IMG/VR virus record: IMGVR_UViG_3300050019_000211
Location: 1-51,893 of that record
Length of the DNA stretch: 51,893 nucleotides
Strand: one strand, 5' to 3'
Source: a virus
Taxonomy: Duplodnaviria > Caudoviricetes
In this document: piece after piece, positions 12,852 to 13,303 of the stretch
Numbering within the stretch: position 1 is the stretch's first letter
Layout of the letters: every line of letters begins with the position of its first letter
Notes under the pieces: model-generated
Seen by the model: the letters and a program-made list of their open reading frames with translations, nothing else
Database searches by the model: none
Told to the model about the DNA's origin: nothing
Position numbers and translations under genes: made by a program

Positions 12852-13258
12852 GACATTATCCACACGGCTAGGCATTGTTTGCATTGGTGCCATTTATAGC
12901 CGCCGGTTGCGCCAAGACATTCCAGAGGCTTCATGCAGCTTGGACAGGTTCCGAGGTTCACAATCTTCTCCTGGTGGGGAGACATCATTGCAGTTTTGAG
13001 CATGTCGCCGAACAAGTCGCTGATGCCAACGTGCTTGGTTCCTGCCGTTTTGGACGCCACAGGTTGTTGACCGCCTGCCCTCGCGTTCCATTGTTCGATG
13101 GCGCTCTTCTCGTTGATACCTTCTGGGCCGGTCACGTTGCACATCGAGCACCAGACGTTTTTGCGAGGCCGCGTTGGGTAGCCGGTTTGTATGATCATCA
13201 GCATGTCACGGTCTTTTTCGCCGCACCACGGGCAGGCTATCGCATCGGTTATTTTCAT
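12824..13258 (-). CDS. cassette H gene: Lar-like (restriction alleviation) Zn-finger plus a second Zn-ribbon
   Basis: MKITDAIACPWCG...VWCSMCNVTGP....EKSAIEQWN resembles the Lar family; C-terminal CPSC...CKQC; tail PNIKADLR. Start taken at ATG 13258. Confidence 0.72.
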   Translation of the reverse strand: MKITDAIACPWCGEKDRDMLMIIQTGYPTRPRKNVWCSMCNVTGPEGINEKSAIEQWNARAGGQQPVASKTAGTKHVGISDLFGDMLKTAMMSPHQEKIVNLGTCPSCMKPLECLGATGGYKWHQCKQCLAVWIMSPNIKADLR

Positions 13259-13303
13259 ATTTTTTCTTGGTTCGACGCACGCGGCATAGCTCCGTCGTTT
13301 GAC
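13007..13303 (+). other. attC site R8, unusually long (297 bp)
   Basis: R'' GCCGAAC 13007-13013; arm GCT(G)ATGCC(A)ACGTGC pairs only with GCACGCGGCATAGC at 13277-13290; R' GTTTGAC 13297-13303. Confidence 0.8.

Follow-up and report, generated by a model that had tools for sequence, protein, structure and literature searches.

Canonical attC sites, of which the VCR-type sites of chromosomal integrons are an example, carry AAC/GTT boxes, imperfect L boxes, extrahelical bases, an unpaired spacer and a G|TT crossover point (PMC5027507, PMC4889954). The extrahelical bases lie on the arm opposite the bottom-strand AAC triplet (PMC5027507), and the top strand recombines roughly a thousand times less often than the bottom strand (PMC8946536). 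The loops of natural sites have been described as 3–100 nt (PMC7439510) or 20–100 nt (PMC4889954) long; long loops cost up to 4 logs of recombination under replicative conditions, but not when the site is delivered single-stranded (PMC8946536). Within canonical integron arrays, sibling sites are alike and cassette bodies are unrelated. Fused gene cassettes place two otherwise separate small-protein modules in one cassette and one frame, and some of them give bifunctional proteins (PMC8876359). Short ORFs of a few codons, on the top strand, start inside attC or attI and aid translation of the next cassette (PMC8876359), and designed attC sites with loops of 3–21 nt have been tested as peptide linkers within coding sequence (Nivina et al. 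2020, PMC7439510). On virus genomes, integrons with an integrase, an attI and attC cassettes were described by Qi et al. (2023, PMC9892861), whose survey reports three complete integrons in 10,705 phage genomes and whose account of these elements leaves long or gene-bearing attC sites unmentioned.

Here we analyse an attC site in a viral genome. The window, which is the whole virus record of 51,893 bases (completeness estimate 91%), carries an integrase, an attI and attC cassettes like the phage integrons above, and its segment 13007–13303 has the boxes, imperfect arms, extrahelical bases, spacer and crossover of a canonical attC. In its array, too, sibling sites resemble one another and the cassette bodies are unrelated. 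It differs from canonical sites in that the loops of this subtype measure 242–251 nt and hold a whole gene, and in that the genes of the cassettes occupy the bottom strand. The loop in the window, at 242 nt, is outside the 3–100 nt found in nature so far, which is a described range and not a requirement. We consider it likely that 13007–13303 is a single genuine attC, that its apical loop holds a complete Lar-family gene and that it represents a recurrent subtype. Neither a gene within an attC loop nor an attC of exceptional length turned up in our searches of open-access papers and preprints, whose supplements may hold tables of attC lengths. The parts of the site are as follows.

12846–13297, + strand: cassette 7, a body (12846–13006) and its own attC, bounded by G|TT crossover points
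13007–13013, + (top) strand: R'' box with the AAC triplet, placed by sequence and model alignment
13014–13018: spacer of 5 nt between R'' and L''
13019–13034, + strand: L'' arm with bulged G13022 and A13028; its − strand codes part of the linker KHVGISDLFG
13035–13276, no strand: loop (variable terminal structure) of 242 nt, about 205 nt of it treated as an insertion in the model alignment
13277–13290, + strand: L' arm, placed by pairing and model alignment
13291–13296: spacer of 6 nt between L' and R'
13297–13303, + strand: R' box with crossover G13297|T13298, placed by joints in other sequencing runs and by the limit of P0002 homology

On this layout, R''/L'' (13007–13034) and L'/R' (13277–13303) would be the partner arms of one hairpin of the bottom (−) strand. 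The L'' and L' arms pair as 3 bp, the bulged G13022, 5 bp, the bulged A13028, an A/C mismatch (13029/13282) and 5 bp, amounting to 13 pairs, one mismatch and two bulges, and the elements follow the same order in the sibling sites. The AAC/GTT triplets of R'' and R' are complementary, as are five of the seven box positions; incomplete complementarity is expected here, six nt of R' being part of the following cassette. The left arm is identical at 17 of 17 positions to that of the sibling site 11789–11898, and beyond these positions matched differences are found on both arms. Throughout this attC family the first extrahelical base is a G on the top strand (13022 in our site) and hence a C on the bottom strand, whereas VCR2 has a G as its first bottom-strand extrahelical base (PMC5027507). 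The cassette borders coincide on the left with the end of a duplicated cassette and on the right with a point at which contigs from two other runs are joined. An 8-bp direct repeat, CTTGGTTC, flanks the loop at 13034–13041 and 13266–13273 and has the look of a target duplication. We read it as chance: it is not conserved in the related contig L023, and the same 351 nt contain a second exact 8-mer repeat.

The genes and neighbouring elements on which the interpretation depends are listed below.

9459–10412, − strand: integron integrase gene intI (NCBIfam TIGR02249; Pfam Phage_integrase and Phage_int_SAM_4)
10443–13921: cassette array
10443–10449, + strand: attI crossover box (G|TT), the left end of a perfect 254-bp repeat, 30 nt from the intI start
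12749–12851, + strand: neighbouring attC (103 nt), found by the covariance model; it supplies the stop codon of P0001
12824–13258, − strand: ORF P0001 (144 aa plus stop), with Lar domain, arm-coded linker and zinc ribbon
12846–13003, − strand: zinc-ribbon module (CPSC...CKQC), with an internal in-frame ATG at 13001–13003
13076–13234, − strand: Lar domain (CPWC...CSMC), residues 9–61 of P0001, wholly within the loop; Pfam PF14354, PHROG 599
13255–13800, − strand: ORF P0002, which belongs to the next cassette, crosses the R'/L' arm with its final 16 or so codons and has a TGA that overlaps the ATG of Lar
13824–13921, + strand: attC of the next cassette (98 nt), found by the covariance model

The integrase reaches 265.3 bits against TIGR02249, a marginal pass of the cut-off of 265. 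Only 30 nt (10413–10442) lie between its start codon and the attI crossover, which leaves scant room for attI and promoters. The perfect repeat (10443–10696 = 12594–12847) starts at the G of a GTT box and extends as far as the next GTT; since it ends at GTT boxes, it represents one 251-bp cassette present twice, with one copy at attI, a sign of recent integrase activity. The same borders fix the crossover as G|TT on the + strand, which is therefore the top strand. This assignment is also obtained with the rule on extrahelical bases (PMC5027507) and is consistent with the position of intI. The array ORFs with family matches, an HNH endonuclease (11114–11611) and the Lar ORF, are all on the − strand, indicating that reading of the cassette genes proceeds on the bottom strand in the direction of intI. 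The textbook integron has the opposite orientation; here the attC precedes its gene. Cassette ORFs are likewise all on the bottom strand and point to intI across 10443–13921 of the window and in two other contigs (L001, 3164–7828; L023, 1367–3599). Peat metagenome runs from 17 studies contain DNA of the array region of the window.

Seven of the 13 other attC sites in the window have an ORF of at least 30 codons whose ATG lies inside the site and which runs past R''. The same arrangement occurs at seven of nine sites in L001 and at five of seven in L023; these ORFs were called mechanically, and the HNH gene is among them. The Lar site is an extreme case of a translation start inside attC that is common in the family. 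Outside the array, the window has a second cluster of four model matches (539–648, 1292–1381, 1994–2117 and 2266–2374; 25.8–77.2 bits) on the same strand, 7 kb from intI and beyond DnaB and replication genes. A cytosine-methylase-like ORF (615–1361) starts inside one of these sites and a 282-codon ORF spans another. A solitary 59-nt attC-like match with T/A bulges (38661–38719, 28.4 bits) is found far from both arrays, and the structural gene region has short runs of a tandem 7-mer, GACTGTG, at two distant places (26720–26771 and 42290–42341).

The first-pass annotation had proposed that the loop contains an ATG and a Lar-like zinc-finger domain that continues in frame through R'' into the zinc ribbon of the cassette, and our analysis agrees on each element. 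Translation of P0001 would begin at an ATG at 13258 (− strand), inside the loop, and the frame is open through R'' down to 12827; the last seven residues are encoded by the neighbouring attC. The profile search proposed earlier returned Pfam PF14354 (Lar_restr_allev) with 34.3 bits (cut-off 28.6, E 2.9e-8), and the domain also matches PHROG 599 (E 3.8e-7) and reaches 34.7 bits against NCBIfam TIGR03655, under the cut-off of 39.6. The N-terminal domain of P0001 is Lar-like as judged by these profiles, with a predicted role in restriction alleviation. L'', the spacer and R'' code for residues 75–84, which form the linker KHVGISDLFG. The frame in which the shared left-arm sequence is read differs between 13007–13303 and its siblings, suggesting that the arms are conserved as DNA and not as protein; the left arm, being coding, could owe some of its conservation to the peptide that it encodes.

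When searched alone against our library, the zinc-ribbon part had 20 relatives at E ≤ 1e-3, 18 of them of 59–97 aa and two of 178 and 193 aa, in an alignment with P0001 that is shallow and has one row misplaced. As 18 of the 20 relatives have this small size, the zinc ribbon elsewhere appears to be a stand-alone small protein. In the window, Lar and zinc ribbon would be made as one fused chain, and the in-frame ATG at 13001–13003 could start the zinc ribbon separately. Compared with described Lar proteins (PF14354, PHROG 599), the zinc-finger domain is shared, and the C-terminal extension is set here by the cassette body that follows. A start codon inside the site is also a property of the short attC and attI ORFs, which differ in having few codons and the top strand where this site has a 60-residue domain on the bottom strand. 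Like a fused gene cassette, P0001 unites two modules in one frame, yet its cassette lacks no attC, the two modules meet at an attC arm and one of them lies inside the site. Relative to the designed linker sites, 13007–13303 is a natural site with a domain in its loop, and its use as a linker is predicted. One Logan protein (P0004) is 73% identical to residues 1–71 of P0001 and then diverges; searches with P0001 and with the P0001/P0004 alignment gave nothing in the viral contigs or in the first metagenome scan.

On the other side of the site, P0002 belongs to a widespread phage family of about 165 aa with more than 640 relatives, for which we found no Pfam or PHROG match. Its homology ends at about 13306, just before R'. 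Lar was found downstream of a P0002 relative in none of 15 viral loci, which indicates that P0002 and Lar are not a conserved operon. A convincing match to the attC family was present near P0002 relatives in one of the 15 loci (L019, 63.5 bits, 2.3 kb from the gene).

The attC family to which the site is assigned has a recognizable signature, consisting of AAC/GTT boxes, 5- and 6-nt spacers and arms in which 3 bp are followed by a bulged G and a further 5 bp by a bulged A. Scanning the + strand of the window gave six matches, five of which, the candidate included, had the G/A bulges, and the − strand gave three matches, none with these bulges. Eight matches with any bulge letters were obtained from 20 shuffled windows together, or about 0.4 per window. 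We then used a covariance model, R1, of 19 sibling sites from the window and related viral loci, with the candidate left out. With filters off, the model returned 13007–13303 as a single match of 37.3 bits (E 1.3e-7 over the whole window, a rough value as are all R1 E-values, since the calibration was shortened), and one of the 15 model pairs was non-standard in the alignment. This full-length match, together with the family signature on both arms, supports the earlier proposal of a 297-bp attC, and the 242 nt between L'' and L' agree with the loop of about 240 bp claimed for it. The site ranks 11th of 14 R1 matches in the window, all of them on the + strand. The 13 others span 59–124 nt: they are indeed shorter, as in the first-pass annotation, which gave about 90–125 bp, and the candidate is some three times as long as is usual.

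In five related loci the model finds 17 matches of 88–136 nt, and in 94.5 kb of unrelated phage loci there is one match above 15 bits, which is attC-like and scores 63.5 bits. When 34 distinct sites are aligned, 92.9% of the cells of the L stem are paired, compared to 55.5% in shuffled controls and 33–39% with the partners slid, and all 15 stem pairs vary on both sides; this alignment was fitted to the model and is hence biased towards structure, and the arms of the window and of L023 are identical and thus add no covariation. Two other approaches were discarded. A nearer right arm at 13091–13099 pairs with just 7 nt of the R box, and the corresponding reading, 13007–13109, scores 19.4 bits; an energy-only scan of AAC...GTT pairs was too noisy to pick out real sites.

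With its default filters, the R1 search returns the site as two separate sub-threshold halves, one of 19.4 and one of 11.7 bits, in line with the earlier suggestion that standard searches would overlook it. The upper attC size limit of IntegronFinder is usually 200 bp. Routine attC searches probably miss 13007–13303.

Folding energetics gave a different picture. The earlier proposal to fold the bottom strand was followed, and the unconstrained fold of the 297 nt leaves the arms unpaired; minimum-energy folds of either strand do so, with a stability no better than that of shuffles (z 0.47 and 1.63). As for a nearer partner that folds better, which the first-pass annotation would have taken as a refutation, 13150–13179 does in a literal sense form the stronger plain duplex with the right arm (−16.6 kcal/mol, compared to −13.7 kcal/mol for the left arm), but it lacks the AAC box and the bulge pattern. 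The probability that the R boxes are paired is 2.7e-3 as against 0.011–0.98 in ten siblings, four times below the weakest of them. The hairpin is absent from the best fold in two of these ten siblings too, so that, in our view, energy by itself says little about these sites. On our reading the long hairpin would still fold and be cut by the integrase, probably on single-stranded DNA.

The Lar-bearing site recurs in other contigs. A search with the zinc-ribbon part led to two metagenome contigs, L022 and L023, with an array of the same attC family, and the same array is present on a viral contig (L025, in which the contig end cuts the site) and on a genome-collection contig (L029). R1 matches of 306 nt are found at 2424–2729 of L023 (33.8 bits) and at 1686–1991 and 2135–2440 of L029, with scores between 31 and 34 bits. 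Between the window and L023, L' with its spacer is identical at 20 of 20 positions and L'' with its spacer at 21 of 21, while the outer flanks agree at 4 of 17 positions on each side. The enclosed Lar gene is 61–71% identical at its ends and matches at 39 of 107 positions in the middle. By this comparison, homology between the window and L023 begins at one R box and ends at the other. The loop ORF of the L023 type scores 36.2 bits against Pfam Lar, is 40% identical to the Lar of the window over 90 residues and continues, by way of the same arm-coded linker, into another cassette body. The same arms thus surround a divergent Lar joined to an unrelated body in L022/L023 and L029, suggesting that the site builds different Lar-X fusions, as the first-pass annotation had supposed for domain fusions in general. 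What is new here, as read from the aligned contigs, is a 306-nt attC with identical arms, a divergent Lar and other bodies and neighbours.

The integrase beside the L023 array (3771–4739) is 27% identical to that of the window (9459–10412) and, at 260.6 bits, falls just under the TIGR02249 cut-off. Integrases so different beside the same attC family suggest cassette exchange between distant integrons. Six further contigs (L024, L026, L027, L028, L030 and L031) were rejected, as none of the six has a model match and their similarity consists of chance 17–19-mer matches to the arms. Homologous cassettes with a short loop, which had been proposed as a check, were not found in the collections: in the two candidates, L032 and L033, the left arm agrees over 33 nt but the right arm is unrelated (16.7 bits).

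We next consider recombination at the G|TT of R'. The right arm is followed after G|TT by three different sequences, one in the window, one in L023 and L029b and one in L029a. In L029 (1535–2440), a 449-bp cassette made of a 143-nt body and the 306-nt site stands in exact tandem, bounded by G|TTAGCC. The two copies are 100% identical over the 300 nt reported, and L023 has one copy; the duplication is known from one assembled contig. In peat runs of two studies, contigs join 12202 to 13296 (run X3) and 12592 to 13296 (run X4) with four shared letters at CGTT, indicating that other attC sites are linked directly to 13297/13298; the short sides of these joints, 29 and 26 nt, are flagged as less safe. 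Over 10300–14200, runs X3, X4, X6 and X10 show alternative cassette orders (11890 to 12593, 12202 to 13296, 12592 to 13296, and 12593 followed by 10443). All these joints fall at G|TT boxes, and the array appears to be in flux.

The contigs of these runs also bear on the continuity of the site. One from X3 (12904–13125) spans zinc ribbon, left arm and Lar, and contigs from X4 (13046–13611), X6 (13056–13390) and X10 (13202–13379) cover Lar, right arm and next cassette, all without differences from the window; 12658–13050 is without cover in X6 and X10. A further X3 contig joins 13031 to 13280, which are predicted stem partners, skipping 248 nt. Such a joint would fit a skip across a formed hairpin and could equally be a library artefact, as it is known from one contig of depth 3.2 with a 20-nt side.

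An alternative reading is that the site is an attC by descent that no longer recombines, its right arm serving as the stem of a leader or regulatory RNA and its left arm as a coding linker. The poor predicted folding and the coding left arm are in its favour, as is the fact that no contig of the other runs shows cassette 7 excised or moved, and long loops reduce recombination in replicating DNA (PMC8946536). Against it stand the three different partners after G|TT and the exact one-cassette tandem duplication in L029, and the site occurs in arrays whose integrases are only 27% identical. The partners, the duplication and the distant integrases all require exchange with Lar already inside the site, unless Lar entered the same site repeatedly. 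We therefore regard loss of activity as unlikely, though it is the most serious competitor of a functional gene-bearing site.

The two arms could also be remnants of two attC sites, brought together by deletions that fused two cassettes, an outcome that the first-pass annotation had named as fatal to its proposal. Cassette fusion through attC loss is well known (PMC8876359), and in L023 a zinc-ribbon cassette with a 133-nt attC directly follows the Lar cassette. However, the arms match base for base with the bulge pattern of the family and differ jointly from their closest sibling, the model scores the arm pair 18 bits over the best half-site reading, and the same arm pair surrounds Lar in independent contigs, all of which makes this origin very improbable.

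Equally hard to credit is a chance inverted repeat within a two-gene cassette (13298–13915 plus 12846–13297), or an assembly chimera at repeated attC arms: the G+C-rich DNA of this region does give many equally stable chance duplexes and the overlap of the P0002 TGA with the Lar ATG is operon-like, but the signature is expected only about 0.4 times per shuffled window even without requiring the G/A letters, the model E-value is 1.3e-7, P0002 relatives occur without Lar in all 15 viral loci, joints are found at 13297 and independent contigs confirm both loop junctions.

We thus return to a gene-bearing attC that is real and recurrent and is probably active, the action of the enzyme being deduced from the arrangement of the cassettes. 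In this model, translation would start in the loop, proceed through the Lar domain and then through L'' and R'' (linker KHVGISDLFG) and end in the zinc-ribbon body. The site would have recombined at its R' box several times, and on single-stranded DNA the length of the loop would matter little for the integrase.

The Lar-zinc-ribbon form may have arisen when the zinc-ribbon cassette lost its attC. The Lar cassette of L023 is directly followed by a cassette for a zinc-ribbon relative (38% identity) that has a 133-nt attC of its own, whereas the window has no attC between Lar and zinc ribbon; losing the stretch between two R'' boxes of the L023 type would yield the arrangement of the window. The outer letters of R'' in the window match the zinc-ribbon site of L023 and not its Lar site, which lends weak support to a fusion origin, as this box is common in the family. 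The event itself may have been slippage between left arms, 17 nt of which are shared with a sibling, or top-strand recombination.

More tentatively, the Lar hairpin may be a self-contained mobile module, carrying an anti-restriction gene to each cassette that gains the attC, a view that we find possible but doubtful. Bottom-strand recombination would act at R', and rarer top-strand recombination or slippage at R''. If exchange takes place at both R boxes, homology between copies would start and stop exactly at the boxes. Each new attachment would then create a new in-frame Lar-X protein, providing a natural domain-shuffling mechanism for phage counter-defence.

A natural attC that carries a gene, is present in several contigs and is apparently still exchanged widens the definition of this recombination site. 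attC sites are generally viewed as short hairpins without coding content, an assumption that is also built into search tools and size filters; cassette arrays, especially viral ones, may consequently be under-counted or mis-split. The site also suggests a natural route to protein fusions with the recombination site as the linker, previously shown only with designed sites, and it makes the limits of loop length in single-stranded recombination, as well as the way in which attC sites gain new genes, accessible to experiment now. Finally, a Lar-like cargo in a phage integron points to integrons shuffling phage counter-defence genes.
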